A stretch of 64,000 nt of DNA, taken from an uncultured Thiotrichaceae bacterium. GTDB lineage: Bacteria > Pseudomonadota > Gammaproteobacteria > SZUA-229. Location of the stretch: NCBI GenBank assembly GCA_964466455.1, contig CAYXNL010000003.1, positions 7,268 through 71,267 of the forward strand, given 5' to 3'. The notes beneath the pieces were generated by a model. That model ran no database searches, had not been told where the DNA came from, and was given only the letters and a program-made list of their open reading frames with translations. Within the stretch, counting starts at the first letter, position 1, and every line of letters starts with the position of its first letter. Below are positions 12,110 to 61,058 of the stretch, piece after piece. Both the position numbers and the translations under genes were made by a program.

Positions 12110-14617
<2,508 letters not shown>

Positions 14618-14699
14618 CTATATAATATGATAAATATTTGTTGAGCTGGATTTTACATGATATTAGCGTGGAACCCGAGTAGAAATCAGGAGTTAGCCG

Positions 14700-15071
14700 G
14701 TGAATAACAAAACAAATGTTCGTCGCCCCAATTTTATCCGCCGCAATCATCTGTTGATCGCCTACAATCAGATGATTATCGACATGGAAGACATACTCAA
14801 ACAGAGTCCGCATGGCTTGCTTTCGCTACAGGAAACACTGGACACAGCACTGACACGCGCACTGCAATCCGGTAATATCAATAAAGCTGAAGCAGCTGAA
14901 ATAACCTGGTATATTAAAAATGATATCAATGATGTGGCTGATTTCATTATGGAATCAGGCGCTGAATATTATGACTGGCTGTTACTGGATATCGAAATCA
15001 TTGAACACAGGGTGCTGACCCAGTATCTGTCTGCAGCCAGTCTCACCCGAACTATCATGGAAGATCTCTGA
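14700..15071 (+). CDS. hypothetical protein (occupies the ybeL position divergent from leuS; weak resemblance to DUF1451 N-terminal region)
   Basis: 123-aa ORF, acidic and helical, no C-terminal zinc ribbon; only positional and very weak sequence support. Confidence 0.35.
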   Translation: MNNKTNVRRPNFIRRNHLLIAYNQMIIDMEDILKQSPHGLLSLQETLDTALTRALQSGNINKAEAAEITWYIKNDINDVADFIMESGAEYYDWLLLDIEIIEHRVLTQYLSAASLTRTIMEDL

Positions 15072-15155
15072 ATCTTGGACGATTCTAATCTCAGGTTGCC
15101 ATTGCCCGGTAGCCATCTTTTTGCTTAAGGCCGCAATCAATTAATAGAGGTGTCC

Positions 15156-17408: not shown

Positions 17409-17495
17409 TTCTGAATTGACACTAACCCGGCCTGAAATAATCAGCCATGATCAACGCGTTCCTGAGCATAATAAAAAAGAAAACATCGGAATAAC

Positions 17496-19091
17496 TTATG
17501 AGCGGCCAATCCCCCTGTTCGCCTTCCGATTTTTTTTCAGTATGTCTACCAGAATTGTAGTTCGCAGCACACAGAAAACCAGCGGCAGCGCACAAAGTAG
17601 TAAAATCAGTGAATCGCCCCAGATAACATAGGGGGTTGATCCGCTATAAGGCTGCACCAGGCCGGTAAGGGCAACCCGTCGAAACTGCGGTGCCAGCTTC
17701 TCTACCCCGCCATCAGGTTCAATAATAGAGCTGATGCCAGTATTGGTTGAACGTACCATATAACGCCCACTTTCCAGTGCCCGCATACGGGCAATATCAT
17801 GATGCTGCCAGGGTTCAGATGAGTCACCAAACCAGGCATCATTACTAACATTCAGTAAAAACTGCGCCTGTGGTAGCGTACTGCGAATATCCCGTGCGAA
17901 AGCATCTTCAAAACAAATTGACAGCCCCGCTGGTACACCTACCAGCCTCATCAACGGCTGATGTGCAGCACCGCTGGCAATATCCGACATCGGAATATTC
18001 ACCCAGCGGCGAAAAAAATCAATCAGAAAACGCAGCGGGATATATTCACCCAGTGGCACCAGGTGGCGCTTATTATAAATTTCGCCATCCGTATTAAGAA
18101 TACTATTCAAAAATTGTCGTTTATTATTTTCAGTAAAAATACCGAATACTAAATCTGTGCCTCTGGCCTGCATGGCCTGTTTCATCTCCTGCAGAAAAGG
18201 CAGCTCCTGTAATCGAAAATCAGGAATCGCTGTTTCCGGCCAGACAATCAGATTAACATCTCTGTTCTGTTCAAGGGTTAACTGGCGGTATATATTCAGC
18301 GTTGGCCGACGCATTTCCGGTCGCCATTTCTGCGATTGCGGAATATTTCCCTGAATAATACTAACCTTGAATGGTTTTCCCTGTGGCTGCGTCCAGTGCA
18401 CCGTTTTCAGCGCAGCACCCAAACCCCAGATAAATATTATAGTAAGCAAACTGAGTAGAATAAAACGAAAATGAATGCTCTGACGTGACTTCAGCAAAGA
18501 ATAAAACCGGGTAAGCAGTAAAGCCAGCGCACCGGCCGTTACCGCAACCAGACCACTAACGCCGTGTGAACCGAATAACGGTGCATAGCCAGCCAGAGCG
18601 GTATCAAGTTGGGTATAACCCGTTTGCATCCAGGAAAATCCGGTTAATACGATTCCCTGTAACCATTCAAAGATAACCCAGGCAGCCGGATAATACAGTA
18701 ATAGACGTAACACCGGACGTTGCGGGCAAAAACGGTTAACCACATAAGCGGTAAAGCCGGTATAGATCCCCAGATAGCAGGCAAGTAAAATAACCAGCAT
18801 GATGGCAAACGGGGCCGGGGTTCCACCGTGAAGGTGCAGGCTGTAATAGATCCAGTTTATTCCCGTTGCCTGTAAACCCGCGCCATATAACCAGCCACTG
18901 AACCAGGCGCGCTTTGGCGTTAACTGCTGCCACAGACTGAAAATAACCGCCTGTGAAACAAACACCAGCCAGACGTGATTATAGGGGGCAAATGCCAGCG
19001 TGGCTCCCGCTCCGGCCACCACACTGATACATAAATACAGATAATAGCGCCGGGACGAAAATAATGGGCTTGCCGATAAAGAGCCGGACAT
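17496..19091 (-). CDS. lnt: apolipoprotein N-acyltransferase
   Basis: 531 aa; multi-pass membrane N-terminus plus CN-hydrolase domain; conserved lnt-corC-ybeY-ybeZ-miaB order. Confidence 0.85.
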   Translation of the reverse strand: MSGSLSASPLFSSRRYYLYLCISVVAGAGATLAFAPYNHVWLVFVSQAVIFSLWQQLTPKRAWFSGWLYGAGLQATGINWIYYSLHLHGGTPAPFAIMLVILLACYLGIYTGFTAYVVNRFCPQRPVLRLLLYYPAAWVIFEWLQGIVLTGFSWMQTGYTQLDTALAGYAPLFGSHGVSGLVAVTAGALALLLTRFYSLLKSRQSIHFRFILLSLLTIIFIWGLGAALKTVHWTQPQGKPFKVSIIQGNIPQSQKWRPEMRRPTLNIYRQLTLEQNRDVNLIVWPETAIPDFRLQELPFLQEMKQAMQARGTDLVFGIFTENNKRQFLNSILNTDGEIYNKRHLVPLGEYIPLRFLIDFFRRWVNIPMSDIASGAAHQPLMRLVGVPAGLSICFEDAFARDIRSTLPQAQFLLNVSNDAWFGDSSEPWQHHDIARMRALESGRYMVRSTNTGISSIIEPDGGVEKLAPQFRRVALTGLVQPYSGSTPYVIWGDSLILLLCALPLVFCVLRTTILVDILKKNRKANRGIGRS

Positions 19092-39247: not shown

Positions 39248-40294
39248 ATGTTATTTAACAAAACCCCATCACCGCATATTAAAACTAACATCAATGTTCA
39301 GACAATGATGTTTCAGGTTATTTACGCACTCATCCCCGGTGCACTTGCCTCCATATACTTTTTTGGCTGGGGGGTACTTTTTAATCTGATTACTGCCATT
39401 ACTGTTTGCCTTGGCAGTGAAGCTCTGATGTTGAGATTCCGCAACTATAATATCCGCAGTCATCTTGGCGATGGTAGTGCTTTAGTCACCGCCTGCCTGC
39501 TGGCATTGGCACTGCCACCACTGGCACCCTGGTGGCTCACCACCATTGCTTCGTTATTCGCTATCGTGGTTGCCAAGCATCTATATGGTGGACTTGGTTT
39601 CAACCCGTTTAACCCTGCCATGGTCGGATACATTGTGGTGATGATATCCTTCCCGCTGCAAATGACATTATGGACTGCACCAATGGGTGTTGGCGCTGGC
39701 TGGCCTGATTTTGTCACTACCTTCCACTGGGTATTTGGCGGTATTATTCCGCCTGGTCACACACTTGATTCATTGTCTATGGCTACACCCATTGACGTTA
39801 TTAAGACGCAACTGAATCAATTCCATTATATTGCTGAAACGCGTAACAGTAGTGAATACAAAGCGATATTCGGTACCCTGAGTGGTATCGGCTGGGAATG
39901 GATAAATGCCCTCTATCTGGCTGGAGGAATCTGGCTGATTAAAAAGAAGGTTGTAGACTGGCGCATTCCCACTGCGTTCTTACTTGCACTGGCCTTCCTC
40001 GCTAATTTATTTGCCGTTATCGACTTTTCCAGCCATGCTTCTGCTCTGTTTCATCTATTCAGTGGCGGAACAATGTTAGCTGCTTTTTTTATTGCCAGCG
40101 ATCCGATTACTGCCAGCACAACACCAAAAGGTCGATGGATCTACGGGCTTGGCATCGGCACTCTGGTCTTTGTTATACGCAGTTGGGGCGGTTATCCCGA
40201 TGGTATTGCCTTTGCCGTTGTACTAATGAATATAGCCGCACCCATTATCGACTACTACACCATGCCAAAAGTCTATGGCGACCCAGATCGCTAA
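39248..40294 (+). CDS. rsxD: ion-translocating oxidoreductase complex subunit D
   Basis: 348 aa membrane protein; covalent-FMN Thr motif region (SDPITASTT). Confidence 0.9.
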   Translation: MLFNKTPSPHIKTNINVQTMMFQVIYALIPGALASIYFFGWGVLFNLITAITVCLGSEALMLRFRNYNIRSHLGDGSALVTACLLALALPPLAPWWLTTIASLFAIVVAKHLYGGLGFNPFNPAMVGYIVVMISFPLQMTLWTAPMGVGAGWPDFVTTFHWVFGGIIPPGHTLDSLSMATPIDVIKTQLNQFHYIAETRNSSEYKAIFGTLSGIGWEWINALYLAGGIWLIKKKVVDWRIPTAFLLALAFLANLFAVIDFSSHASALFHLFSGGTMLAAFFIASDPITASTTPKGRWIYGLGIGTLVFVIRSWGGYPDGIAFAVVLMNIAAPIIDYYTMPKVYGDPDR

Positions 40295-40334
40295 CCGCCT
40301 GATCGCTAACTATTAGAAACAATGATTACAAACT

Positions 40335-40991
40335 ATGAAACTACTCAAGGAAAACCCGAAAAAAATTATTAATACTGCCCTGATATTAATGACTTTCGCC
40401 GCAGTCGGCGCAGCCATGGTAGGGTTCACGCATAGCAAAACAAAAAATGCTATCCTTTACAATGAGAAACTGACCCTGCTGCGCAAACTCAACACTATTA
40501 TTCCGGCACAGCAATATGATAACAAACTGCTTGAAGATACGATAAAAATACCTGCCGATACTTTACTCGGCACCAGTAAGCCGGAAACCGTTTACCGCGC
40601 ACGCAAACAGGGAAAACCCGTTGCCGTCGTAATACCGGCAATTGCCTCTAATGGTTATAATGGCTCGATAGAAATGCTGGTTGGTATTTATCATAATGGG
40701 ATAATTGCCGGTGTACGCATCGTCAGCCAGCATGAAACCCCGGGGCTGGGGGATCAGGTTGACAGCGCCCATTCCAACTGGATTAAAGGCTTCACCGGAA
40801 AAAGCCTGAAACAGCCGGATGAAAGACACTGGAAAGTGAAACGTGATGGGGGTGCCTTCGATCAGTTTACCGGAGCCACTATTAGCCCACGCGCAGTGGT
40901 TAAAGCGGTTCATGCGGCCCTGCTCTATTACAGCAAACACAAAGATAAATTATTTGCCGGAAAAACCCACACCCAGGAGAGCACAAAATGA
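40335..40991 (+). CDS. rsxG: ion-translocating oxidoreductase complex subunit G
   Basis: 218 aa; N-terminal anchor and FMN-binding domain ([10 protein letters not shown]). Confidence 0.9.
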
Positions 40992-41698
40992 AACATCTCT
41001 CTTTTGAAAAACAGGCAGAAATTATACGTAACGGCCTGTGGAACAATAATATGTCACTGGTACAGCTACTCGGTCTGTGTCCGTTATTAGCTGTTTCAAG
41101 TACCGTTGTTAATGGCCTCGGTCTGGGTTTTGCTACTCTGCTTACACTGGTGCTGTCCAATAGCAGCATATCTCTGATTCGCCCCTGGTTAAAATCAGAG
41201 ATTCGTATTCCAATTTTTGTACTAATTATCGCCTCCATCGTCACCTGTATTGAACTAATCATGAACGCCTGGTGGCATGAACTTTATCTGGTACTGGGTA
41301 TCTTTATTCCACTGATTGTTACCAACTGCGCCATTATCGGTCGTGCCGAAGCCTTTGCTTCAAAGAATAATGTGCTGAATTCTGCTCTGGATGGCTTTAT
41401 GACAGGATTAGGCTTTACTCTGGTTCTGGTGGTACTCGGTGGTATGCGTGAACTAATTGGTCAGGGTACGCTGTTTGCCAATGCTCAGTTAATGTTTGGG
41501 CAATACGGCAAGGCACTCACCTTAACCGTCATCCCTCACTATCCGGGGTTTTTGCTAGCCATATTGCCACCCGGTGCCTTTATCGGACTCGGGCTGCTAA
41601 TTGCACTGAAAAACATCATCGACAAACGCCAGGCCCAACGCAAAGCGGCTCGCATAAAACTCACCACTACAACCGAAGCAGCAGTGCAATGTAGGTAA
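40988..41698 (+). CDS. rsxE: ion-translocating oxidoreductase complex subunit E
   Basis: 236 aa RnfA-paralog membrane protein; ATGA overlap with rsxG. Confidence 0.9.
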
Positions 41699-41751: not shown

Positions 41752-42387
41752 ATGAACAGACATAAACGCCACGAAATATTTTCACGACTACAGCAGGCAA
41801 ACCCAGAACCCACCACTGAGCTTCATTACCACTCTACCTTCGAATTACTGATAGCCGTGATTCTTTCGGCCCAGGCAACCGATAAAAGTGTCAACAAAGC
41901 CACAGAAAAATTATTTACTGTGGCGAATACCCCGGAAGTTATGGTTGCATTGGGAGAAAACGATTTAAAATCATATATAAAAACGATCGGCCTGTATAAC
42001 ACCAAGGCAAAGAATATTATAAATACCTGCCGACTGCTTATTGAACAACATCACAGCATGGTACCCGATGACCAGAAAGCCCTGGAAGCTCTGCCCGGTG
42101 TTGGTAGAAAAACGGCAAATGTGGTTAGAAATACTGCTTTTAATCACCCGACTATTGCCGTGGATACCCACATTTTCCGCGTCGCCAACCGCAGCAAAAT
42201 CGCAACCGGGAAAAATGTACTGGAGGTTGAAAAGAAATTACTAAAAGTTACCCCAGATGGGTTTTTGCATAACGCCCATCACTGGTTGATTCTACATGGA
42301 CGTTATACCTGTATTGCGCGCAAACCACGTTGCGGCTCATGTATTATTGAAGATTTGTGTGAGTACAGACAGAAAACTGAAATATAA
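41752..42387 (+). CDS. nth: endonuclease III
   Basis: 211 aa; HhH-GPD (LPGVGRKTANVV) and C-terminal 4Fe-4S CxxxxxxCxxC...C; closes the rsx operon as in E. coli. Confidence 0.9.
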   Translation: MNRHKRHEIFSRLQQANPEPTTELHYHSTFELLIAVILSAQATDKSVNKATEKLFTVANTPEVMVALGENDLKSYIKTIGLYNTKAKNIINTCRLLIEQHHSMVPDDQKALEALPGVGRKTANVVRNTAFNHPTIAVDTHIFRVANRSKIATGKNVLEVEKKLLKVTPDGFLHNAHHWLILHGRYTCIARKPRCGSCIIEDLCEYRQKTEI

Positions 42388-42543: not shown

Positions 42544-42786
42544 ATGCCTGCTTTAACCATAAAGAATATCCCCGATGATCTCTACGATGAGATAAAAAAC
42601 ATTGCAAAACAACACCATAGGAGCATCAATAGCGAGGTTATTGTGTGTCTTAAACGCTCCCTGTTTCCTAAACGAATCAGCCCAGATGAACGACTTAGCA
42701 CGATTCAGGCTATTCGCTCCCAAATTAAACCTAACACCATTACAGCGGAAGATATTGACCAGGCCATAAATGAAGGAAGGCCATGA
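42544..42786 (+). CDS. vapB: ribbon-helix-helix antitoxin (FitA/VapB-like)
   Basis: MPALTIKNIPDDLYDEIKNIAKQHHRSINSEVIVCLKRSL is a typical RHH/Arc-fold N-terminus; GGAG 9 nt upstream of the ATG at 42544 (ORF-track frame begins at a TTG at 42526); 4-nt overlap (ATGA) with the downstream PIN gene. Confidence 0.75.
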   Translation: MPALTIKNIPDDLYDEIKNIAKQHHRSINSEVIVCLKRSLFPKRISPDERLSTIQAIRSQIKPNTITAEDIDQAINEGRP

Positions 42787-43190
42787 TTATCGCTGATACT
42801 AATATTATTTCTTATCTTCTACTCCCGACTTCATATACAGATTCAGTTGAAAGCCTTTATAAAATTGATCCTGACTGGGCTGCTCCCATACTTTGGAAAA
42901 GTGAATTTCGTAACGTCATGGCGCTTTACCTTAGAAAGAAGATTATCCGCCTGGAAAAAGCAATGCAGATTCAAGATACCGCTGAGTCAATTATAATTCA
43001 AAATGAATATGACGTTTCATCATCACAGATACTCACACTCATAGATGAAAGTAACTGCTCATCATACGACTGTGAATTCGTAGCACTCGCGCATCATTTT
43101 GATACAAAATTAGTTACTCAAGATAAAAAAATATTACGCGAATTTCCATCTACTGCCATATCCGTATCAGATTATCTCTCCCAGCTATAA
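42783..43190 (+). CDS. vapC: PIN-domain toxin (VapC/FitB-like)
   Basis: 135 aa; N-terminal MIIADTNII (first conserved PIN acidic residue), additional acidic positions (DES, DCEFVA), size typical of VapC. Confidence 0.75.
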   Translation: MIIADTNIISYLLLPTSYTDSVESLYKIDPDWAAPILWKSEFRNVMALYLRKKIIRLEKAMQIQDTAESIIIQNEYDVSSSQILTLIDESNCSSYDCEFVALAHHFDTKLVTQDKKILREFPSTAISVSDYLSQL

Positions 43191-50799: not shown

Positions 50800-53532
50800 T
50801 TAGTGATCAAGTAATGCTCTGATTTTCATACTCAGATCAATCTGGGTATACGGCTTATTAAGCAGATTCGCTCTGAACCGTGACTGGCCATTGCGTGCGA
50901 TGGCTTTTTCCGTATAACCGGAGGTTAATAATACTTTAAGTGACGACTGCAATGTCGTCAGCTTTTCTGCCAGTTCAAATCCATTTAGACCACCCGGCAT
51001 AACAACATCACTAAACAATAGATCAATGGATGATTCTTCTTCAAATTTCGTCAATGCCTGCGCAGCGTTACTGGCAGTAATAATCCGATAACCCTGCCGG
51101 GATAATGTCTCTTCAACCAGCTCAACCAATCCAGGTTCATCATCAACAACCAGAATGGTTTCATTCCCTTTGGGGAAAGCCGTGCGGGAGGGAGAAGGTT
51201 TCGGTTGTTCTTCTTTTTCCTGACGGACACGTGGTAGATAAATTCGAAAGGTTGAGCCAATACCCTGTTCTGAATAAACCTTTATGGCGCCAGCTGAGCG
51301 TTTTACAAAACCGAACACCATCGCCAGACCTAAACCGGTTCCCTTGCCCTGTTTTTTTGTACTGAAAAAAGGTTCAAAAACACGTTCCTGAACCTCTGTA
51401 GACATGCCTTCCCCATTGTCACTCACCGCTAGCTCAACATATTGCCCAGGTATCACCTCTGGGTCATAGCGGCAATAATCTTCATCCAGTACAACATTAG
51501 CGGTTTCTATGGTTAACAAACCGCGCCCTTTCATTGCGTCACTGGCATTAATAATAAGGTTTAGCAAGGCATCTTCAAAATCACCGGAGGAAATTTCCGT
51601 TAGCCATATCGGCTGACAGAAATTATGTTCAATTTCCACCTGCGGTGTTAACGAACGGGCGATTAAATTACTCATGTCTTTAATCCGCCGGTTAATATCA
51701 GTAACCGCCGAACTGGATACATCACTGCGCGAAAACCCGAGTAACTGCCGGGTAAGATCAACAGCACGTTGCGCTGCATGGCGAATGCCCTTTATCCTTT
51801 TCTGTATTTCCTCATCAGTTTCAATATGCGGCTCAAGCAGATCAAGATTCCCTAGTATAATACCAAGAATATTATTAAAATCATGGGCAATACCTCCTGT
51901 CAGTTGGCCGATTGCCTCCATTTTCTGTGTCCGACGCAGGGCAATTTCAGTTCGCTGATGCTCACTAATATCGCGCCATACCGCATGCAATACGGTTTCA
52001 TCACCGAAGGGAATAGCCGTAAACAAAACTTCTACCGGAAAGGTTTGACCATTTTGTCGCTTATGTACCCATTCAAAACGATGACTACCTTTTTCCCTGG
52101 CAATAGCCATCATTTCATTGGCTTTTTCAATGGACTCTCTACCATCCGGTTGTAGCGGTGGTGATAGATCGGAGGGACTAGTTTGCAATACGGCCTTTTT
52201 ATCCGCATACCCCAGCATGCTGACCATTGCCTGGTTACAGTCAACAAATCGTCCTTCTTCAAGAATAAGCAACGCATCGGTTGATTTTTCAAACAGAGTA
52301 ACATATTTTTTCTCGCTTTCCTGTAGCGTTTTCTCCGCCTGTTTACGTCTGCTTATATCGGTATAAACACCGCAGACGGCATAAATTTTATTTTCGCTGT
52401 CAAATAGCGGAAACTGGTCTGATATATAATGATGCACACCCCCATTATGCAAAATAGTTTCCTCAGATTTTATCCTCCTCCCGTTTGCAATAATGGCTTC
52501 ATCATCACTGAAAAACACATCGTTACGACCGGAAGAAGAAACTTCTTTATCTGTTTTACCAATAATGTCTTCATGCGCAGTATGAAACAGCGTTTCATAC
52601 TGCCGGTTAACAAAAATATAACGCCCGGCAAGATCTTTTGCATAAACGATGGCCGGGGAATGGTCCATAATCGCCTGTAAATTACGCTGGTTTCTGGCAT
52701 TCATCTCTCGCAACCGGTACCGTTCCGTAACATCACTGAACACCAGCACCATACCTTGAACCTCAGCATTGTCACCATTGCGAATCGGCGCAGCAGAATC
52801 GGCAATCTGGTACTCACACCCGTCTCTGGCTATTAATGTGGTGTGGTTGCTCAGGTAAACCGTTTTACCGGTGGCAATGACTTTTTCAACTGGATTTTCG
52901 ATTGACGCCCGAGTACTGGCATCAATAATAGGGAAAACTGTTTTAACCGGTAAGCCTTTTGCCTCATTATTAGACCAGCCGGTTAACTGCTCGGCAACCG
53001 GATTCAACAGGGTCAGATTGCCTGCCTGATCCGTAACCATCACCGCATCACCGATAGAATTCAGCGTAATAGACAAATTTTCCTCACTCAGGCGCAGACG
53101 CTCACGGCTACGTTCCAGCTTCCTGAGCAACCGCTTCTGCTTGTCAATTTCGCGATTTAGTGCAATAAAGGTATTTGCCCGTGAACCGACCGGCTTCATC
53201 CGTAATATAATCTGTGCCGACTGTTCATTCTGACTCGGTACCAACAGAAAACCTTCACAACTCGACATAGGTGATTCGCGGTTAGCGTGCGCACACATTA
53301 ATGCCAGTCTCATCGGGGTTCGAGAACGGGTACAGGGTCGTAGTCGAGAACGGATCTCAGTGGATGACAGATTGGTTAGTTCAGCTAGATTAATGCCTGT
53401 CAGCTCTTCGGCGCTGTGTTGTAAAATACGTGAAGCGGCACGGTTGATCGCCAGGATTTCCCCCTCAGCGCTTACCATCAGCATGCCCTCAGGCAACAGA
53501 TCAGCCAGAAAAAGAAATTCAGATGCCTGCAT
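50800..53532 (-). CDS. cytoplasmic multi-PAS hybrid sensor histidine kinase (PAS x ~4, HisKA, HATPase_c, C-terminal receiver)
   Basis: 910 aa; no TM segments; H-box IAHDFNNIL, ATPase G-boxes (DNGEGM, GTGLGLAMV), C-terminal REC (ILVVDDEPGLVEL...DLLFSDVVMPGGLNG). Confidence 0.85.
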   Translation of the reverse strand: MQASEFLFLADLLPEGMLMVSAEGEILAINRAASRILQHSAEELTGINLAELTNLSSTEIRSRLRPCTRSRTPMRLALMCAHANRESPMSSCEGFLLVPSQNEQSAQIILRMKPVGSRANTFIALNREIDKQKRLLRKLERSRERLRLSEENLSITLNSIGDAVMVTDQAGNLTLLNPVAEQLTGWSNNEAKGLPVKTVFPIIDASTRASIENPVEKVIATGKTVYLSNHTTLIARDGCEYQIADSAAPIRNGDNAEVQGMVLVFSDVTERYRLREMNARNQRNLQAIMDHSPAIVYAKDLAGRYIFVNRQYETLFHTAHEDIIGKTDKEVSSSGRNDVFFSDDEAIIANGRRIKSEETILHNGGVHHYISDQFPLFDSENKIYAVCGVYTDISRRKQAEKTLQESEKKYVTLFEKSTDALLILEEGRFVDCNQAMVSMLGYADKKAVLQTSPSDLSPPLQPDGRESIEKANEMMAIAREKGSHRFEWVHKRQNGQTFPVEVLFTAIPFGDETVLHAVWRDISEHQRTEIALRRTQKMEAIGQLTGGIAHDFNNILGIILGNLDLLEPHIETDEEIQKRIKGIRHAAQRAVDLTRQLLGFSRSDVSSSAVTDINRRIKDMSNLIARSLTPQVEIEHNFCQPIWLTEISSGDFEDALLNLIINASDAMKGRGLLTIETANVVLDEDYCRYDPEVIPGQYVELAVSDNGEGMSTEVQERVFEPFFSTKKQGKGTGLGLAMVFGFVKRSAGAIKVYSEQGIGSTFRIYLPRVRQEKEEQPKPSPSRTAFPKGNETILVVDDEPGLVELVEETLSRQGYRIITASNAAQALTKFEEESSIDLLFSDVVMPGGLNGFELAEKLTTLQSSLKVLLTSGYTEKAIARNGQSRFRANLLNKPYTQIDLSMKIRALLDH

Positions 53533-54062
53533 CAGCTTTTGTAATACTCAATACCCGAAACCGCATCCGCTTCATCGGTATGGGACAGATACACGATTAC
53601 ATGACAGCCCGCATCACCATTGGCTATGGTTTGTGCCAGATGGACTTTTGCATAGCCTAGATTCTCCGCAGTAATGATACCAAACACATTTGATGTCATC
53701 ATACACAGACTGGGCCGTCCAATGACTTTTTCTGCAAAGGGGCAGGACTGGCTTTCCAGTACAATCTTGTCTATCCCCTGTGAAACAACTTTAAAATCGC
53801 CCTGAATACGCTGCTTAAAATCAGCCAGCACAGCGCCAACCTGTTCACGGTTAAGACTGGACACGTTCAAGGCCCGACAATAATCCTGATTGATTGCATC
53901 TCCCATGCTCTGGCCGACAATGGAAACAAACCCGGCGGCTTCTTCCACACCGACTACATCCTGCAATGTACCGGACAGTTGCCGTAATAACTCACGCATA
54001 AAACCATCGCGTTCTAGCGGAATTTCAAGACTGGACAGATCACAATCGGTTAACAGGGGCAT
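53532..54062 (-). CDS. small cytoplasmic putative ligand-binding sensor protein (V4R/XylR-N-like?) translationally coupled to the hybrid kinase
   Basis: 176 aa; soluble; Cys-containing motifs ESQSCPFAEKVIGRPSLCMM and GDAGCHVIVYL; its TGA overlaps the kinase ATG (ATGA at 53530-53534). Confidence 0.5.
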   Translation of the reverse strand: MPLLTDCDLSSLEIPLERDGFMRELLRQLSGTLQDVVGVEEAAGFVSIVGQSMGDAINQDYCRALNVSSLNREQVGAVLADFKQRIQGDFKVVSQGIDKIVLESQSCPFAEKVIGRPSLCMMTSNVFGIITAENLGYAKVHLAQTIANGDAGCHVIVYLSHTDEADAVSGIEYYKS

Positions 54063-54337
54063 TGATTACTCCTTACCTTAATAAGCAGGTAATATCAGGG
54101 AACTTCTGATCAAGTCGTACTTGAATATCTTGAATTTAGACTTTATCAAAAACTATTTTTATCTCAAAGCAGAGGAATACTCTACGTATATTATTACAAT
54201 AAAACGCGCTTATAGTAATAAAATAAACGGCAAAAATACAATATAAATACAATATGATTAAACCCTGGTTATTTAGACAGGTCATAATTTCTCGGTATTA
54301 CCCATAAAAAAGCACACAACTAATAGCAGAAAAAATC

Positions 54338-54766
54338 ATGACTGCAAAAAAAACGATTAGCATTGCCGCCCGGCTGGCCGGGATAGGTATTGAAACCATA
54401 CGCTACTATCAGCGTACTGGATTAATTGAGGAACCGGAAAAACCGGTTTCCGGTTTTCGCGTGTATCCACAATCGACGATTAATCGTATCCGCTTTATTC
54501 AACGCGCTAAAAAGCTGGGGTTCAGTCTGGCGGAAATTACTCGTTTACTGAAACTTGATGACGGTAACTGCGCACAAACCCGTGCCATTGCTGAACACAA
54601 ATACGCATTAATTACCGAAAAGATAAAAGATTTGCAAATCATGGCGACTGTACTTGAAAAACAGATCAATAACTGCAAGATAAATATGGACATAGATCAT
54701 TGCCCACTAATATCTTCCCTGGCTGACACTCAGGAAACAGCAAAAAAGCTGCTGACAGATAACTGA
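54338..54766 (+). CDS. MerR-family heavy-metal-responsive transcriptional regulator (ZntR/CadR/PbrR-like)
   Basis: 142 aa; N-terminal wHTH (ISIAARLAGIGIETIRYYQRTGLIEEPEKPVSGFRVY), dimerisation helix, and Cys78/Cys113/Cys122 at the positions of the metal-binding triad of PbrR/CadR/ZntR. Confidence 0.8.
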   Translation: MTAKKTISIAARLAGIGIETIRYYQRTGLIEEPEKPVSGFRVYPQSTINRIRFIQRAKKLGFSLAEITRLLKLDDGNCAQTRAIAEHKYALITEKIKDLQIMATVLEKQINNCKINMDIDHCPLISSLADTQETAKKLLTDN

Positions 54767-54808
54767 CATTGTATAATCGCACCACTTTTTACTTCACCGA
54801 GAGTTACC

Positions 54809-56032
54809 ATGTCTTTAATTCGCCCCTTTGCCGGTTTACGTCCTGTTCCTGAACGTGCAGAAGAAGTCATTGCACCACCCTATGATGTACTGAATTCTGT
54901 CGAAGCCCGTGAACAGGTAAAGGGGCGTCCGTGGAGCTTCCTTCATATCTCCAAAGCTGAAATTGACCTACCGGAAGGTATCGACCCCTATGACCCGGAA
55001 GTATATGAAAAATCAGCAGAAAACCTGAGAAAAATGTTGGACGAAGGTATTTTGATGCGCGAAAACAAAGACTGTTACTATGTTTACCGTCTAATTATGA
55101 ACGATCATATCCAGCTTGGTCTGGTCGCGACCGCTTGCGTTGCCGATTACGATACCAATCGTATTCGCAAGCACGAATTTACCCGCCCGGCAAAAGAAGA
55201 TGACCGCGTACGTCAGATTGAAGCACTCAACGCGCAAACCGGCCCGGTATTACTGGCATACAAATCACAGCCAGATATGGATGCCATTCTGGCAACAACC
55301 ACCCGGCAGCGGCCACTGGTTGATGTAACCGCCGACGATGGCGTACAGCATACTTTCTGGAAAATTGATAGCGATGATACTATCAAAAAAATTACGGCAG
55401 GATTTGATGCCATGACCGCTTTGTATATTGCAGATGGTCACCACCGTTCTGCTTCCGCTTCACGAATTGCCAAAAGCCGTGGTGGTAATGGTAACCAGAA
55501 CAGTGATTATTTTCTCTCGGTAATTTACCCGCATAACCAGATGAATATTCTCGATTATAACCGTGTTATTACCGACTTAAACGGTTTAACTAAACAGCAG
55601 GTACTGGAAAAAACCCAACTGTCATTTAATGTAACAGAAGAGAATGAAGCGGTTCATCCAACCAGGGCAACAGAATTCGGTATGTATCTGGATGGTCAGT
55701 GGTATCGTCTGACAATTCACCCACAATTGATTCCCAATGACCCGGTGCAGTCGCTTGATGTCAGCCTGCTGGCTAATCATTTAATTGAACCGGTTTTAGG
55801 CATTTCTGACCCGCGCACAGATAACCGTATCGACTTTGTCGGTGGTATTCGTGGCCTTGCTGAACTGGAAAAACGGGTTAATAGCGGAGAGATGGCGATT
55901 GCTTTTTCCTTCTTTCCAACCAGTATGAACGCCTTAATGGCCGTTGCGGACGCAGGTGAAGTAATGCCGCCAAAATCAACCTGGTTTGAGCCCAAACTGG
56001 CTGATGGCCTGGTCTCACACGTTCTGGATTAA
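54809..56032 (+). CDS. DUF1015 family protein
   Basis: 407 aa; family-typical N-terminus MSLIRPFAGLRPVPERAEEVIAPPYDVLNSVEARE. Confidence 0.7.
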   Translation: MSLIRPFAGLRPVPERAEEVIAPPYDVLNSVEAREQVKGRPWSFLHISKAEIDLPEGIDPYDPEVYEKSAENLRKMLDEGILMRENKDCYYVYRLIMNDHIQLGLVATACVADYDTNRIRKHEFTRPAKEDDRVRQIEALNAQTGPVLLAYKSQPDMDAILATTTRQRPLVDVTADDGVQHTFWKIDSDDTIKKITAGFDAMTALYIADGHHRSASASRIAKSRGGNGNQNSDYFLSVIYPHNQMNILDYNRVITDLNGLTKQQVLEKTQLSFNVTEENEAVHPTRATEFGMYLDGQWYRLTIHPQLIPNDPVQSLDVSLLANHLIEPVLGISDPRTDNRIDFVGGIRGLAELEKRVNSGEMAIAFSFFPTSMNALMAVADAGEVMPPKSTWFEPKLADGLVSHVLD

Positions 56033-56051
56033 TACAGCAGAGAATAGCATT

Positions 56052-57620
56052 TTGTACGATTTATTACACCAGCGCCTGGCAAAAATCCGCCAGTCGGGTA
56101 AAGAAGAAACCCTGTCCGGTTCAAAAATCGGACTGGAAAAAGAAAGCCTGCGGGTATCCCCTGATGGCGGACTTTCACAACACCCTTCGCCTGCGGCATG
56201 GGGTTCGATGCTAACCAATCCCATGATTACCACCGACTTTTCAGAAGCACTGGCAGAGTTAATCACGCCGCCATGTGATTCAGTTAATGAGGTAATTCAG
56301 TCACTCGATGATATTCAGCATTTTGTCTATCGCCACCTCGATAATGAAATTCTCTGGGCAACCAGTATGCCCTGCGTGGTTGCCGGTGAAACCAGTATTC
56401 CACTGGCTCGTTATGGACGTTCTAACGCCGCACAGATGAAAACAATTTATCGCAAAGGGCTGGGGCTGCGTTACGGTCGCGCCATGCAGGTCATTGCCGG
56501 GGTACATTTTAATTATTCTTATGCTGAAGAATTCTGGTGCTGTTTTCAGCAACTGGAACGAGGCTCGGGTCAACTACAGGATTTTATTTCCGATCACTAC
56601 ATGGGGCTGGTCAGGAATCTGCTGCGTTATGGCTGGTTAGTCCCCTACCTGTTCGGTGCCTCACCCGCTGTATGTAAATCTTTTCTTAACGGACAAAAAA
56701 CACTGTTACAGGAGTTTAATGATAATACCTGTTATGAACCCTACGCCACTTCATTGCGTCTGGGTAATATCGGTTATCAAAATAACAAGGAAGACCTGGC
56801 AGGCATTAAGGCCTGTTATGATTCCGTAGACTGTTATGCGGAAAGTCTGCAATGCGCCATTCGTACCCCGAATCCAGCGTACCAGAAAATCGGCGTAAAG
56901 GTAAACGGTGAATACCGCCAACTGAACACCAATATTCTACAGATAGAGAATGAGTATTACAGTACCGTGCGCCCGAAACCGCTGCTGCACACCAATGAAA
57001 GCCCGGCTTATGCCCTGAAAAAACACGGCATTGCCTATATCGAACTACGTTCCGTTGATGTTAATGCCTATGACCCACATGGCATTCATTCCGAGCAGTT
57101 ATATTTCCTCGAGGTTTTTATGCTGTTTTGCCTGTTGCACGACAGCCCACCACTTAGCAGCAACGAAATCAATACCATTGACCAGAATCTACTGCTGGTT
57201 GCTCATCAGGGTCGCAAACCCGGGCTTACCCTGCAACGCAATAACCACCCCATCAACCTGCAACAGTGGGCAGGTGAGTTATGCCGTGAAATGAAAACCG
57301 TTGCAACATTGCTGGATCAGGCAAATTTCTGCGAAAACTATTTTTCCAGTGTAAAGGCTCAGATTGCCAGCGTTTATGACCCGGATCTAACACCTTCGGC
57401 AAGAATGCTGGCTGAAATGCGTGAACATGAAGAGGGCTTTTATCATTATGCCAAACGTATGTCACAGCATCATTATCTGTATTATAAAAAACAATCCCTC
57501 CCTGCCGAGAAAATTCGTTTTTTTAAACAGTTGGCTGAGCAGTCCATACAACAGCAACAACAGATAGAACAGACCGACCAGATCAGTTTTGATCAGTATC
57601 TTGCCCGGTACTATGCCTAA
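56052..57620 (+). CDS. gshA: glutamate-cysteine ligase (gamma-glutamylcysteine synthetase)
   Basis: Strong alignment with E. coli GshA (LEKESLRV / ITTDFSEALAELITP / MPCVVAGE / YLFGASPAVCKSFL / LRLGNIGYQN / YIELRSVDVN). A TTG at 56052 gives an N-terminus the same length as E. coli GshA (which itself uses TTG) and avoids overlap with DUF1015. The alternative ATG at 56004 overlaps DUF1015 by 29 nt; the ORF-track frame begins at 55986. Confidence 0.85.
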   Translation: MYDLLHQRLAKIRQSGKEETLSGSKIGLEKESLRVSPDGGLSQHPSPAAWGSMLTNPMITTDFSEALAELITPPCDSVNEVIQSLDDIQHFVYRHLDNEILWATSMPCVVAGETSIPLARYGRSNAAQMKTIYRKGLGLRYGRAMQVIAGVHFNYSYAEEFWCCFQQLERGSGQLQDFISDHYMGLVRNLLRYGWLVPYLFGASPAVCKSFLNGQKTLLQEFNDNTCYEPYATSLRLGNIGYQNNKEDLAGIKACYDSVDCYAESLQCAIRTPNPAYQKIGVKVNGEYRQLNTNILQIENEYYSTVRPKPLLHTNESPAYALKKHGIAYIELRSVDVNAYDPHGIHSEQLYFLEVFMLFCLLHDSPPLSSNEINTIDQNLLLVAHQGRKPGLTLQRNNHPINLQQWAGELCREMKTVATLLDQANFCENYFSSVKAQIASVYDPDLTPSARMLAEMREHEEGFYHYAKRMSQHHYLYYKKQSLPAEKIRFFKQLAEQSIQQQQQIEQTDQISFDQYLARYYA

Positions 57621-57636
57621 CAGTAACCATAACCCA

Positions 57637-58041
57637 ATGCGCCAGATATTTTATGACTGCTGGCAATTAAAACACAGCGGGCAGCCACTGGACGCTATGC
57701 AATCCATCATTGCCACCATTATTGAACTTCATCCCGAATACCACGCTTTACTGGAAGATCCATCTTCTCTGGAAAAAGACTTTTCTGTTGAAAATGGGGA
57801 AAGTAATCCATTTCTACATTTAAGCATGCATATTGCTCTGCACGAACAGCTTAGCGGCAACCGACCTGCTGGAATAAAAAATATATATCAGCAACTGTGT
57901 TATCAGCACGGTAGCGCACATGATGCAGAACACGCCATGATGGAATGTCTGGGAGAAAGCCTCTGGCAGGCACAACACAATGGCTGTACACCGGATGAAA
58001 CAGCCTATCTACACTGCCTTAAAAAGTTGGAAAAGCGCTGA
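57637..58041 (+). CDS. DUF1841 family protein
   Basis: MRQIFYDCWQLKHSGQPLD...EYHALLEDP...ENGESNPFLHLSMHIALHEQLSGNRPAGI...AEHAMMECLGESLW matches the DUF1841 consensus. Upstream in-frame ATGs at 57613 and 57589 (ORF-track start) are alternatives. Confidence 0.7.
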   Translation: MRQIFYDCWQLKHSGQPLDAMQSIIATIIELHPEYHALLEDPSSLEKDFSVENGESNPFLHLSMHIALHEQLSGNRPAGIKNIYQQLCYQHGSAHDAEHAMMECLGESLWQAQHNGCTPDETAYLHCLKKLEKR

Positions 58042-58050
58042 CTAATGTAG

Positions 58051-58188
58051 AGATACTAACAGGATGGATGAGAGGGATACTTATTGTTCAAGACCGTCAG
58101 CCGCAGGGATGCGGGTGTCGAGCTTACATGGAGGTACTTACAGCGTGTCCTGAACAATAAGTATCCCTTTTACCCGTTTCAATAATAT
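58051..58188. repeat. MITE/REP-like palindromic element, long copy (21-bp terminal inverted repeats GGGATACTTATTGTTCAAGAC / GTCCTGAACAATAAGTATCCC)
   Basis: Left part agatactaacaggatggatga and right part cttttacccgtttcaataatat are shared with the short copy at 25390-25448. Internal nested hairpin CCGCAgggaTGCGG. Confidence 0.7.
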
Positions 58189-58343
58189 ACATTTACTGCA
58201 AAAAATATTATTTTTTTATTCCAATTGACTGAACTTGCTATTTTCCTGCTTGTCTTTTTTTGTCGGAACCGTGTAGACTGAAATTATTCAGGTTTCATTC
58301 CCCCATCCTGGCGGATGATATTAATTTTTCTGGAGAAAAACGA

Positions 58344-58685
58344 ATGGTAAATAAAACGACGAAAAGAACCCTTTCTGTGGCAATAGGAGCCGCCTTTGCT
58401 GTAGCAATGATGACCGCACCAATAGCAAAAGCAGATACCAATCCATTTGGAATGCAAAACCTGAAAACCAGTTATCGGGAAATTGCAAGTAACAAATGTG
58501 CTGCCAGTATGAAGAAGCAGACCAGTGGCAAGTGTGGTGCTGCAGAGTTGAAGAAAAAAGAAGAAATGAAGAAAATGGAGATGATGAAAAAGGAAGGTAA
58601 ATGCGGTACCAATAAAATGAAAAAAATGGAAAAAGAAGGTAAATGTGGCGCCAATAAAATGAAAAAAATGGAACATGAAGGTTAA
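58344..58685 (+). CDS. secreted Met/Cys/Lys-rich repeat protein with tandem EGKCG...MKKME modules; putative periplasmic Cu/soft-metal-binding protein or RiPP-metallophore-like precursor
   Basis: GGAG at 58332-58335 then ATG at 58344. Sec signal peptide MVNKTTKRTLSVAIGAAFAVAMMTAPIAKA|DT. Mature region contains four KCG/EGKCG units interleaved with MKKME(M)MKK Met-rich motifs. The last two modules are a 42-bp tandem DNA repeat (58596-58679). Strong terminator follows. Confidence 0.7.
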   Translation: MVNKTTKRTLSVAIGAAFAVAMMTAPIAKADTNPFGMQNLKTSYREIASNKCAASMKKQTSGKCGAAELKKKEEMKKMEMMKKEGKCGTNKMKKMEKEGKCGANKMKKMEHEG

Positions 58686-58715
58686 AAACAGAACATACCC
58701 TTTTCTTTCTTTAAA

Positions 58716-58741
58716 AGCCCCGTAACTCCGGGGCTTTTTTA
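58716..58741 (+). terminator. Rho-independent terminator after the EGKCG-repeat gene
   Basis: AGCCCCG-taactc-CGGGGCT followed by TTTTTTATT. Confidence 0.8.
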
Positions 58742-58931
58742 TTACAGAGAATAACTGAAAAAACACGCGAAAAATAAAAAAGTGGTTACAATATAGTTAT
58801 CACGATATTGTAACCACGATATAGAGCAGGGTATTGTATACCTCCCCGTGAACCTGTTCGATTGTACCATAACGATAAGGAGACACTGATTAATCATGAG
58901 TCTCCATAATTAAGATACCGGGGCCACCCTT

Positions 58932-60428
58932 ATGTTTTCAGCAGAATCATTCGGAATAGAAGTACTCGCATGGATGGCAACAATATTTTTCATCACCATC
59001 AGCCTGCTACTTATTTTTCTTGTTGGTGTTTACATTGCGGATGTTACTCAGACCAAACAGGCCATCCGCCGGAACTATCCAGTTATTGGTCATTTTCGTT
59101 ATTATTTCGAACACCTCGGTACTTTTTTCCGTCAGTATTTTTTTACCATGGATCGGGAGGAAATGCCCTTTAATCGCGCCCAGCGCTCATGGGTATATCG
59201 TGCAGCAAAAAATATCGAGAATACCGTTGGTTTCGGTTCTACACGTGACCTACGCCCGGTCGGTACCATTTTATTTATTAATACCGCCTTTCCAACACTT
59301 GGCAGGGAGGCGGTTGACGCCAAACCGGTTATTATTGGTGGGGATTCTGCCCGACAACCCTTTACAGCCTGTTCTTTTTTTAATATTTCCGGGATGAGCT
59401 ATGGCGCCATTTCCAAACCTGCAATACAGGCTTTATCCTATGGTGCAAAAAAAGCCAATGCCTGGATGAATACCGGTGAAGGCGGTCTGTCTTCCTACCA
59501 TCTTGAAGGTGGTGCTGATATTGTGTTTCAGATTGGAACAGCCAAATATGGTGTCAGAGACGAAAACGGCAAATTATCTGATGAAAAACTAACTAAAATT
59601 GCTGCACACGAAAATGTCCGCATGTTTGAAATAAAGATGTCTCAGGGTGCAAAACCCGGTAAAGGCGGCATTCTACCGGGAAAAAAAGTAACCGCAGAAA
59701 TAGCTCGTATCCGCGGTATACCTGCTGGTGAAGATTCTATCAGCCCCAATCGCCACCCTGAAATCAGAACAAATGATGACCTTATTGATATGATTAATCA
59801 TATACGGGAAGTTACCGGCAAACCCGTTGGTTTCAAGGCCGTACTGGGAGATGACATCTGGTTAAAAGAATTTTTCCAGGCGGTTAACAAACGCGGAAAA
59901 CATAGCGCTCCTGATTTTATTACCATCGACAGTGCCGATGGCGGTACGGGCGCTGCACCGGTGAGTCTGATGGATTATGTTGGTCTGCCGATTCAGGAAA
60001 GCCTGCCTATCGCGATTGACAATATTGTACAGGCGGGTCTGCGTGAACGCATCAAGGTAATTGCCTCAGGCAAATTAATTAACCCGGCCGAAGTCGCCTG
60101 GGCATTATGCGTAGGGGCTGACTTTATTAGTTCAGCACGTGGCTTTATGATGTCTCTGGGATGCATTCAGGCTTTGCAGTGTCATCAGAATACCTGCCCA
60201 ACCGGTATTACCACTCATGATAAAAAATTACAACACGGCCTGGTTGCTGAGCAGAAATCTTCACGTGTATGTAACTATATTAATAATATCCGTTATGAAG
60301 TGGGTCTTATCGCCCATTCCTGTGGTGTCTCTAATGCCAGGAAACTGAGCCGATGTCATGCCCGCATTGTCCAGCAAAATGGAAAGTCAATAACACTGAA
60401 AGACCTGTACCCCGGTAAACAGGAATAA
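58932..60428 (+). CDS. FMN-binding glutamate synthase family protein (GltB domain-2-like), membrane-anchored
   Basis: 498 aa; N-terminal TM helix (IEVLAWMATIFFITISLLLIFLVGVYIA) then glutamate-synthase central domain motifs (ISGMSYGAIS, GEGG, QGAKPGKGG, IDSADGGTGAAP, ASGKLINP) and a C-terminal Cys cluster. Confidence 0.8.
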   Translation: MFSAESFGIEVLAWMATIFFITISLLLIFLVGVYIADVTQTKQAIRRNYPVIGHFRYYFEHLGTFFRQYFFTMDREEMPFNRAQRSWVYRAAKNIENTVGFGSTRDLRPVGTILFINTAFPTLGREAVDAKPVIIGGDSARQPFTACSFFNISGMSYGAISKPAIQALSYGAKKANAWMNTGEGGLSSYHLEGGADIVFQIGTAKYGVRDENGKLSDEKLTKIAAHENVRMFEIKMSQGAKPGKGGILPGKKVTAEIARIRGIPAGEDSISPNRHPEIRTNDDLIDMINHIREVTGKPVGFKAVLGDDIWLKEFFQAVNKRGKHSAPDFITIDSADGGTGAAPVSLMDYVGLPIQESLPIAIDNIVQAGLRERIKVIASGKLINPAEVAWALCVGADFISSARGFMMSLGCIQALQCHQNTCPTGITTHDKKLQHGLVAEQKSSRVCNYINNIRYEVGLIAHSCGVSNARKLSRCHARIVQQNGKSITLKDLYPGKQE

Positions 60429-60525
60429 TAATTAACCGCACCGCTCATGGTATGATACTACCAGATGGTAGAATCCCATCGTACATCGCAAAACCAGAAC
60501 TTATTTCTATGTTAACAGTATAGTA

Positions 60526-60768
60526 GTGATGAAATATCGAATAATAACAGGCATCATGCCCGTTCTATTGTTGTGTTCCACCATGATTACGGCCTGCAGC
60601 ACACAGGACTGGTACCAGGGAGCGCAGTCTATGCACGAGTTGTCATGCCAGAAATTACCAAAAGCTGAATACTATGACTGTATGAAGGAATCGGATAAAA
60701 GCTACAATAGTTACAAAAAAAATCGTGAACAGTTAAATAAACCCAACCCAGATATTAAAACACGCTAG
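60526..60768 (+). CDS. small lipoprotein, hypothetical
   Basis: 80 aa; signal peptide with lipobox TMITAC|S. Confidence 0.5.
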   Translation: MMKYRIITGIMPVLLLCSTMITACSTQDWYQGAQSMHELSCQKLPKAEYYDCMKESDKSYNSYKKNREQLNKPNPDIKTR

Positions 60769-60974
60769 TCAATTTTTTTATCCCTGAATATTCCTCTGAA
60801 AAAAATTAGTCCCGGACAAATTCCAGTTATCGCGGAGAATATAAAAAATATTGCCGGTAAATAAAGTACCCAGTTAACCACATCAAAACCGGTTAACCAT
60901 ATTCCCAGCCATAAAATTGCACCCACAAACAGAAAAAATGCTTTCATTGCCGGATCCATTTTATCCATCATCAA
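60765..60974 (-). CDS. DUF2892 (YgaP C-terminal-like) small membrane protein
   Basis: 69 aa; two TM helices and the conserved GxCP motif (ITGICPGLIFF). Confidence 0.6.
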   Translation of the reverse strand: MMMDKMDPAMKAFFLFVGAILWLGIWLTGFDVVNWVLYLPAIFFIFSAITGICPGLIFFRGIFRDKKID

Positions 60975-61058
60975 TACCTGCTATGTATCAGTAGAGAAGA
61001 TCACAATAAAATAAATTTACAGAAAATTCAACAACCACCCGTCTTTTCCACATATTTT

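Follow-up and report, generated by a model that had tools for sequence, protein, structure and literature searches.

Does the order of five neighboring genes in a single gammaproteobacterial genome point to a dedicated response to metal and thiol stress? The genes in question lie on a 64-kb stretch of contig CAYXNL010000003.1 (GenBank assembly GCA_964466455.1) from an uncultured Thiotrichaceae bacterium; this whole stretch of 64,000 nucleotides is called the window below. The first-pass annotation of the window proposed a coherent metal/thiol-stress island made of a MerR-family regulator, a DUF1015 protein, glutamate-cysteine ligase (gshA), a DUF1841 protein and a secreted Cys/Met-rich protein with EGKCG motifs, and it took the tight coupling to gshA as a clue to the roles of the two DUF proteins. 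We identified genes by Pfam and NCBIfam profile scans of the translated open reading frames (ORFs) and compared the locus with about 170 related loci in total, labeled L006 onward. All five co-directional plus-strand ORFs are present, and the ORF list, Pfam and NCBIfam agree on their families; except for the subtype of the regulator and two start codons, the first-pass description of the genes is in essence accurate. We nevertheless favor, with a probability of about 0.7, a reading in which four independent units form a mosaic peculiar to this lineage, rather than a dedicated metal/thiol-stress system.

The island interpretation is not borne out, because among relatives synteny with gshA breaks down for DUF1841 and for the most part also for DUF1015, the operator expected for the regulator is missing, and the secreted protein falls into another system that has already been described. 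Since the units appear to be separate and to have become neighbors in this lineage alone, little can be learned from their order about the roles of DUF1015 and DUF1841. The main value of the analysis is thus a correction: adjacency in one genome had suggested functions for two DUF families, and the survey of related loci contradicts them. DUF1015 is redirected to serine metabolism, and the EGKCG protein to the hvf/oxazolin family of ribosomally synthesized and post-translationally modified peptides (RiPPs). The most useful leads are a pairing of DUF1841 with nth and a methionine-enriched HvfA-like precursor that lacks its maturase, both described below.

The window also lacks the hallmarks of a horizontally acquired island, namely a boundary formed by tRNA or integrase genes, mobility genes and a GC shift. 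No tRNA was found across the window and no integrase or transposase among its scanned ORFs, and the GC content varies between 0.37 and 0.50 without a step or other compositional break. The backbone is ordinary chromosomal DNA (leuS-lptE-holA-type genes, the rnf operon, nth and an RND efflux pump). All genes of the locus are under purifying selection, with ratios of nonsynonymous to synonymous substitution rates (dN/dS) of 0.05-0.27.

Neighborhoods of DUF1841, DUF1015 and gshA

The DUF1841 survey was an alignment-based scan with one genome per species and covered 80 loci of γ- and β-proteobacteria. A match to GshA, DUF1015, MerR or the EGKCG protein within 8 kb of DUF1841 was found in none of them (0/80). 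Clustering of the neighbors revealed rnfB-C-D-G-E, nth (endonuclease III) and DUF1841 as the conserved context. Of the 73 loci that have enough sequence, 58 have nth directly upstream of DUF1841 and in the same orientation; nth and DUF1841 are a conserved gene pair across β- and γ-proteobacteria. The window holds rnf and nth at ~35.0-42.4 kb (rnf genes at 39248-41698), and 15.2 kb separates nth from DUF1841. This block comprises a PIN-domain gene, the RND pump, DUF1318, a YdbH-like gene, a histidine kinase gene, a MetOD1 gene, merR, DUF1015 and gshA. It is opened by the PIN-domain (toxin-like) gene at 42783-43190, directly after nth.

According to gene calls, DUF1841 most likely starts at the ATG at 57613, which gives an 8-nt overlap with the gshA stop. 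L088 and L090 have a Sel1/SH3 gene between gshA and DUF1841; it is missing in the window and in L086, the closest relative, and the overlap is due to this absence. In the proposed mosaic DUF1841 would form the third unit: a stand-alone, His-rich helical protein, parted from nth by the 15-kb block, that would abut gshA only through the missing Sel1/SH3 gene. Across L006-L085 DUF1841 is without exception a helical stand-alone protein of ~140 aa, and four of its histidines (H40, H69, H73, H107) are invariant. It has no fold match in the PDB, and a literature search for DUF1841 found nothing. The earlier statement that both DUFs lack an assigned function holds for DUF1841 but no longer fully for DUF1015, for which a function has now been proposed (see below). 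A functional link of DUF1841 to the hvf-type cluster was considered and set aside; the two are adjacent in only 4 of the 69 loci with enough downstream sequence, all four gammaproteobacterial. For work on the function of DUF1841, its pairing with nth and rnf and its four invariant histidines are a better starting point than its adjacency to gshA.

The neighborhood of DUF1015 was surveyed in 80 metagenome loci and by contig look-ups. The order DUF1015-gshA occurs in the window, L086, L088, L090, L092, L093, L176 and L178. In the survey, gshA follows DUF1015 only within L086-L093 and L176, all with at least 82% identity, and in none of the 72 loci with 50-80% identity; it is also missing after DUF1015 in L175 and L177/L094, which are just as close. 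Where the pair exists its gap varies (19, 20, 127 and ~600 nt), and in L176 an HTH_3 gene lies in between. Because the pairing is limited to a clade and the gaps are variable, we read the adjacency as inherited local synteny of one clade, not as conserved functional coupling. Synteny of the two DUF genes with gshA had been set beforehand as a test of the island. DUF1841 fails it, and DUF1015 passes only in part of the clade with at least 82% identity and otherwise largely fails, so the coupling to gshA loses its value as a clue to the roles of either family.

The ligase itself is ordinary. GshA scores well above the TIGR01434 equivalog cutoff (547.5 against 393.3 bits, model positions 3-512) and is assigned to this equivalog. 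Its conserved N-terminus MYDLLHQRL begins at the TTG at 56052, and position 55986 is merely the mechanical start of the longest ORF. The start codon is also TTG in L086, L090 and L093, and GTG in L088. The TTG start reported earlier is thus retained, but it moves from 55986 to 56052. Because gshA starts there, DUF1015 and gshA are separated by 19 nt without overlap; of the overlapping junctions described in the first-pass annotation, the one between gshA and DUF1841 stands and the one between DUF1015 and gshA does not. The gshB gene was not found in the window.

DUF1015 proteins have been proposed to be serine kinases, named SerBK, that substitute for the phosphoserine phosphatase SerB (bioRxiv 10.1101/2024.10.14.618325). 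The evidence comprises linkage to serA and serC, a distant resemblance to the SbnI fold, fitness data on BT1151 and complementation of serB by the clostridial CBO1128, and the family members named are CBO1128, BT1151 and CDIF630erm_01132 (bioRxiv 10.1101/2024.10.14.618325). In our metagenome survey, DUF1015 homologues with 50-54% identity to the window protein sit in serC-serA-DUF1015 arrays, whose representatives score 497 bits for serC (cutoff 253) and match PGDH at 369 bits for serA. No linkage of DUF1015 to serA or serC was found in the window or in near relatives. Among the at least 120 matches listed, mostly from gammaproteobacterial metagenome-assembled genomes and metagenomes, identity is 79-99%, and this high conservation suggests an enzyme of core metabolism. 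A phmmer search of DUF1015 against the PDB gave nothing significant, and an AF2 model built from a shallow alignment (23 sequences, 79-92% identity) reached a predicted local distance difference test score (pLDDT) of 46.7, too poor for a fold search. From the family assignment and the linked homologues, the window protein is a probable SerBK-type serine kinase, that is, a SerB substitute. The second unit of the mosaic would consist of this protein and gshA, neighbors only in a narrow gammaproteobacterial clade; the two would probably be transcribed from a conserved promoter-like element that directly precedes DUF1015, and transcripts from merR may read through into them.

An alternative that we consider unlikely is that DUF1015-gshA(-Sel1/SH3)-DUF1841 is a selected metabolic operon, independent of MerR, in which SerBK feeds serine or O-phosphoserine to cysteine for the synthesis of γ-glutamylcysteine. 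Serine is a precursor of cysteine and glycine, the order DUF1015-gshA recurs in the eight loci named above, and the non-ATG start of gshA close to the DUF1015 stop is conserved. Such an operon is difficult to reconcile with the variable distance between the two genes, with the HTH_3 insertion, and with the absence of the pair in L175, in L177 and in every more distant locus. Local synteny handed down within the clade accounts for this pattern better than selection for co-expression does.

The EGKCG precursor and the hvf-type genes

The fifth gene was correctly described as encoding a secreted Cys/Met-rich protein, and it can now be placed in the copper-binding HvfA/oxazolin precursor family. 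Its signal peptide was recognized by inspection (basic n-region, hydrophobic core, cleavage between AKA and DT). The Cys motifs are two EGKCG, one SGKCG and one NKCA; they are single, canonical members have more of them, and the final repeat is cut short (...EHEG). The protein passes neither of the family hidden Markov models (HMMs), with 25.3 bits for NF050188 (cutoff 95) and 18.0 bits for NF050137 (cutoff 19.5); its orthologues in L091, L010, L012 and L007 pass NF050137, and those of L007 and L012 have canonical EGKCGEGKCGG repeats. In the alignment, both the signal peptide and the segment ADTNPFGMQNL-GY-QLA-KCG are conserved among the precursors. The precursor gene has a dN/dS of 0.20.

The HvfA family is by now well characterized and consists of Sec-exported precursors with EGKCG repeats, whose cysteines are turned into copper-binding heterocycles by HvfB (MNIO) and HvfC (DUF2063-type) (PMC11252979, PMC12452194, bioRxiv 2025.11.18.689057); stand-alone precursor genes are also known (PMC12452194). 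In L088, whose DUF1015 is 84% identical to that of the window, DUF1841 is followed by the precursor, a GltS-like gene, HvfB and HvfC (14350-18561), with HvfB at 435 bits (cutoff 360) and HvfC at 307 bits (cutoff 142). The same order of precursor, GltS-like gene, HvfB and HvfC occurs in L007 and L012, and MNIO-HvfC follows DUF1841 in L015, L020 and L053. The GltS-like gene is located downstream of DUF1841 in L006, L007, L010, L012 and L014, directly or after the precursor gene.

The window and L086 have kept the precursor and the GltS-like gene, and hvfBC are not at the locus. No tblastn match to MNIO (HvfB) or HvfC was obtained in the whole window, nor did a blastn comparison of the window with L088 find them at 60429-61058. 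In the window and L086, hvfBC appear to have disappeared from an ancestral precursor-GltS-like-HvfB-HvfC cluster, a direction of change that we infer. Because a hairpin followed by a T run, resembling an intrinsic terminator, lies 3' of the precursor gene, this gene is predicted to be its own transcription unit. By its family and its neighbors in relatives it would belong with the downstream hvf-type genes, not with gshA. The fourth unit would thus be a monocistronic EGKCG precursor of an hvf/oxazolin-type copper-binding RiPP cluster with hvfBC lost at the locus, and the peptide either has a maturase encoded elsewhere or works unmodified.

In the lineages without a nearby maturase (the window, L086, L090/L091) the precursor is markedly Met-rich, with GKCGANKMKKME repeats; the precursor of L088, where HvfBC are kept, has only 4 Met. 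The GltS-like protein, which contains a flavin mononucleotide (FMN)-type glutamate-synthase domain, is membrane-anchored and is encoded between the precursor and the MNIO maturase in L088 (15165-16670), L007 and L012. A glutamate-synthase FMN protein is not listed among the partner genes of the biosynthetic gene clusters in the parts of the MNIO papers that were read. The GltS-like gene is preceded, at a distance of ~115 bp, by a near-perfect inverted repeat at 58782-58817 whose 16-nt arms, GTGGTTACAATATAGT / ACGATATTGTAACCAC, are separated by 4 nt. It looks like a candidate operator; its exact 10-mer core occurs in none of the fetched loci.

The repeat element noted earlier before the EGKCG gene is confirmed as an inverted repeat that resembles a miniature inverted-repeat transposable element (MITE). 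It is absent at the same site in L086, and copies with 80-85% identity were found in L088 (9768-9911 and 4365-4403), L089 and L009 (11048-11113). In L088 and L089 it lies upstream of DUF1015, directly so in L088. The element appears to be mobile in this clade, and it is the sole mobile element of the window.

The MerR regulator and its flanking DNA

The regulator had been labeled PbrR/CadR-like on account of its Cys78/Cys113/Cys122 triad. The triad, read from the translation, is real: it aligns to C82, C117 and C126 of Tn501 MerR (5CRL) and is kept in relatives down to ~45% identity, so this one of the tests set beforehand does not count against the island. Matches to PF13411, PF09278 and PF00376 identify the helix-turn-helix (HTH) domain of MerR and its dimerization helix. 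The label itself does not survive. The protein scores 144.7 bits against the Hg MerR model TIGR02051, narrowly below the equivalog cutoff of 150.85, versus 74.5 bits against the CadR/PbrR model TIGR02047, which is far from the cutoff of 151.45. Among solved structures, Tn501 MerR scores 107 bits, Bacillus MerR 83 bits and PbrR/CadR 47-48 bits. These scores make it an Hg-type MerR by sequence, not a PbrR/CadR-like regulator.

Homologues in other loci lie beside metal-resistance genes. In L172 (72% identity) merR is followed by merC and in L174 (54%) by merT-merP, and in both the intergenic region contains the textbook merO promoter TTGACT-CTGTAC-N4-GTACGGAG-TATACT. The homologue in L173 (66%) adjoins arsR-arsC-acr3 right after the same YdbH-like gene as in the window, and DUF1015 is not on the fetched stretch. 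No merO-like site with up to 2 mismatches occurs in the whole window; a scan allowing 3 mismatches gave 35 matches versus 30 expected by chance. Homologues of MerC, MerT, MerP, ArsR, Acr3 and CDF proteins were also not found in the 64 kb. At this position merR is restricted to the three closest lineages (the window, L178 and L086), always with the divergent MetOD1-histidine kinase pair, and L088, L090 and L176 retain DUF1015-gshA without merR. With a dN/dS of 0.27 relative to L086, the regulator is likely still functional, and its target is probably elsewhere or the divergent operon. The first unit would thus be an Hg-type MerR that arrived or persists with the divergent pair and whose merO promoter and mer transport genes were either lost or never present at this locus.

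The hybrid PAS histidine kinase, the MetOD1 protein and the divergent MerR (50800-54766) co-occur in the window, L086 and L178, and L088 and L090 lack all three of them. The three genes may therefore form a module in which MerR acts on the divergent MetOD1-histidine kinase operon.

The DNA on both sides of merR, at 54767-54808 and 54063-54337, had been named as the place to look for a MerR-type dyad. A scan for promoters with a 19-20-bp spacer recovered both positive controls and gave only weak candidates in the window. The best of them, CTGACA-19 bp-TTTACT, lies in the 42-bp gap between merR and DUF1015, whose length is as reported before, at the position of PmerT in the relatives. A perfect TATAAT (54772-54777) lies inside this element. 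The merR-DUF1015 spacer is 92% conserved across the window, L178 and L086, and by hand count 10 of its 20 bases agree with those of the L172 merO spacer. The element contains no dyad, and the three lineages differ exactly at the would-be right half-site. It is possibly a decayed PmerT or an ordinary DUF1015 promoter.

Upstream of merR, two candidates were rejected as MerR operators. The palindrome around TACGTA at 54176-54195 lacks conservation in both L178 and L086. The other, the inverted repeat TTATTAC-N17-GTAATAA, is unlike MerR-family sites in that its arms measure 5-7 bp and are separated by 17 bp. The otherwise divergent, indel-rich MetOD1-merR intergenic region contains a ~70-bp block (54176-54250), conserved in the window, L178 and L086, that includes TTATTAC-N17-GTAATAA. 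By its conservation this block is probably a shared promoter or regulatory region. An Rfam scan of the whole window at gathering thresholds gave 0 matches, and scans for sigma-70 promoters and terminators gave no more sites than in shuffled controls.

Several points weigh against a mosaic of independent units. The genes from merR to DUF1841 lie on one strand, the first two junctions being gaps of 42 and 19 nt and the third an overlap of 8 nt, no plus-strand terminator is predicted between merR and DUF1841, and co-transcription from merR to DUF1841 is plausible in this lineage. The conservation of the merR-DUF1015 spacer exceeds that of synonymous sites (dS ~0.4), and the spacer has a 19-bp MerR-type geometry at the PmerT position; a rewired MerR-dependent promoter is possible there. 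The slot between the YdbH-like gene and DUF1015 carries ArsR-Acr3 and a CDF exporter in L088 (5989-9735) and a CDF exporter with a rhomboid protease in L090 (8514-9305). Together with MerR-ArsR-ArsC-Acr3 after the YdbH-like gene in L173 (5001-7533), it is a variable hot spot of metal(loid) resistance in relatives. A pairing of SerBK with gshA would be metabolically sensible, as serine leads to cysteine and glycine. Finally, the SerBK role draws on a preprint and on ~50%-identical homologues, with a poor model of the window protein itself, and our view of the genome is the 64-kb window.

Several of these points also speak for the first-pass reading, in which merR-DUF1015-gshA-DUF1841 would be a MerR-controlled, soft-metal-inducible glutathione operon, with both DUF proteins in thiol or metal homeostasis and the EGKCG protein as its periplasmic arm. 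The regulator's metal-binding Cys triad is intact and under purifying selection, and the EGKCG family binds copper. We nevertheless judge this operon improbable: its promoter would have no dyad and would vary between lineages at the right half-site, no merO occurs in the window, DUF1015-gshA persists without MerR in three related loci, DUF1841 was never linked to gshA in its survey, DUF1015 is linked to serA/serC in other phyla, and the EGKCG gene has its own terminator-like hairpin and accompanies hvfBC in relatives. In a bolder version, restricted to this one lineage, an Hg-type MerR without its mer genes has been rewired and, through a remodelled PmerT (CTGACA-19 bp-TTTACT), induces DUF1015, gshA and DUF1841 in response to soft metals, while the HvfA-like precursor, having lost its MNIO maturase, binds Cu(I) in the periplasm as an unmodified Met/Cys-rich peptide. 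Metal sensing would then govern both the supply of cysteine from serine and the synthesis of glutathione, and MerR control of gshA would be a case of regulator exaptation, but the evidence is against it and we hold it to be very doubtful.

Table 1. Features of the window that are discussed in the text
Feature	Position	Strand	Details
nth (endonuclease III)	41752..42387	+	Pfam HhH-GPD and EndIII_4Fe-2S; end of rnf operon
MetOD1-domain gene	53532..54062	-	PF18546; leads the divergent pair with the hybrid histidine kinase gene
merR, predicted orphan Hg-type MerR	54338..54766	+	142 aa; Cys78/Cys113/Cys122; motif HCPLISSL
Promoter-like element, merR-DUF1015 spacer	54763..54793	+	CTGACA (54763-54768), 19 bp, TTTACT (54788-54793)
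DUF1015 protein	54809..56032	+	407 aa; DGHHR motif; PF06245 351 bits, model positions 1-325/325
gshA, glutamate-cysteine ligase	56052..57620	+	TTG start; PF04262 518 bits; TIGR01434 547.5 bits
DUF1841 protein	57613..58041	+	142 aa, all-alpha; PF08897 179.5 bits, model positions 3-135/135
MITE-like element	58043..58187		~145 bp; inverted repeat with 29-nt arms at 58066-58175
Putative stand-alone degenerate HvfA/oxazolin (Buf_EGKCG) RiPP precursor	58344..58685	+	113 aa; ATG start at 58344; Sec signal peptide; 4 Cys, 13 Met
Intrinsic-terminator-like hairpin	58713..58738	+	Perfect 10-bp stem, then T run; 3' of precursor gene
FMN-type glutamate-synthase-domain (GltS-like) protein	58932..60428	+	498 aa; PF01645 301 bits
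Site of hvfB/hvfC in relatives, both missing here	60429..61058		630 bp; small lipoprotein-like ORF and small minus-strand ORF

Comparison with known systems

Each component of the locus is a member of a known family. The regulator is closest to the Hg(II)-responsive activator MerR of Tn501/Tn21, which was the top match in both the HMM and the PDB searches. In both, the metal-ligand cysteines are spaced by 35 and 9 residues, and both have the motif C-P-L-I-(A/S)-S-L and the conserved HTH segment IETIRYYQR. They differ in that merR of the window has neither merO nor mer structural genes within 64 kb, precedes DUF1015 and diverges from a MetOD1-histidine kinase operon, and that its product has a 14-residue C-terminal tail. 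With PbrR/CadR (5GPE, 6JGV) the regulator shares the MerR fold and the Cys triad, which has the numbering 78, 113 and 122 in PbrR as well. However, its score against these regulators is about half of its Hg MerR bits, and the operators and neighbors of its relatives are of the mer type.

GshA of the window resembles the E. coli enzyme in lying far above the equivalog cutoff and in its non-ATG start; the E. coli gshA gene also starts with TTG. The DUF1015 protein resembles SerBK in its full-length match to PF06245, in its 50-54% identity to the serC-serA-linked homologues and in its DGHHR motif, and differs from it in having gshA as its neighbor, without serA or serC nearby. Like the rsx/rnfABCDGE-nth operon of the E. 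coli type, the window has rnf and then nth, but DUF1841 is 15 kb downstream of nth; to our knowledge, DUF1841 is not present in E. coli.

The secreted protein differs from HvfA/oxazolin of H. influenzae, fontiphorin, gonophorin and other Buf_EGKCG members in having only 4 Cys in single, not doubled, EGKCG motifs, Met-rich spacers (xNKMKKMEK) and a truncated last repeat, in scoring below both NCBIfam cutoffs, and in having no MNIO or HvfC within 64 kb. It shares with them the Sec signal peptide, the EGKCG repeats and the conserved N-terminal segment, and it is orthologous to the precursors that lie next to HvfB/HvfC in L088, L007 and L012.

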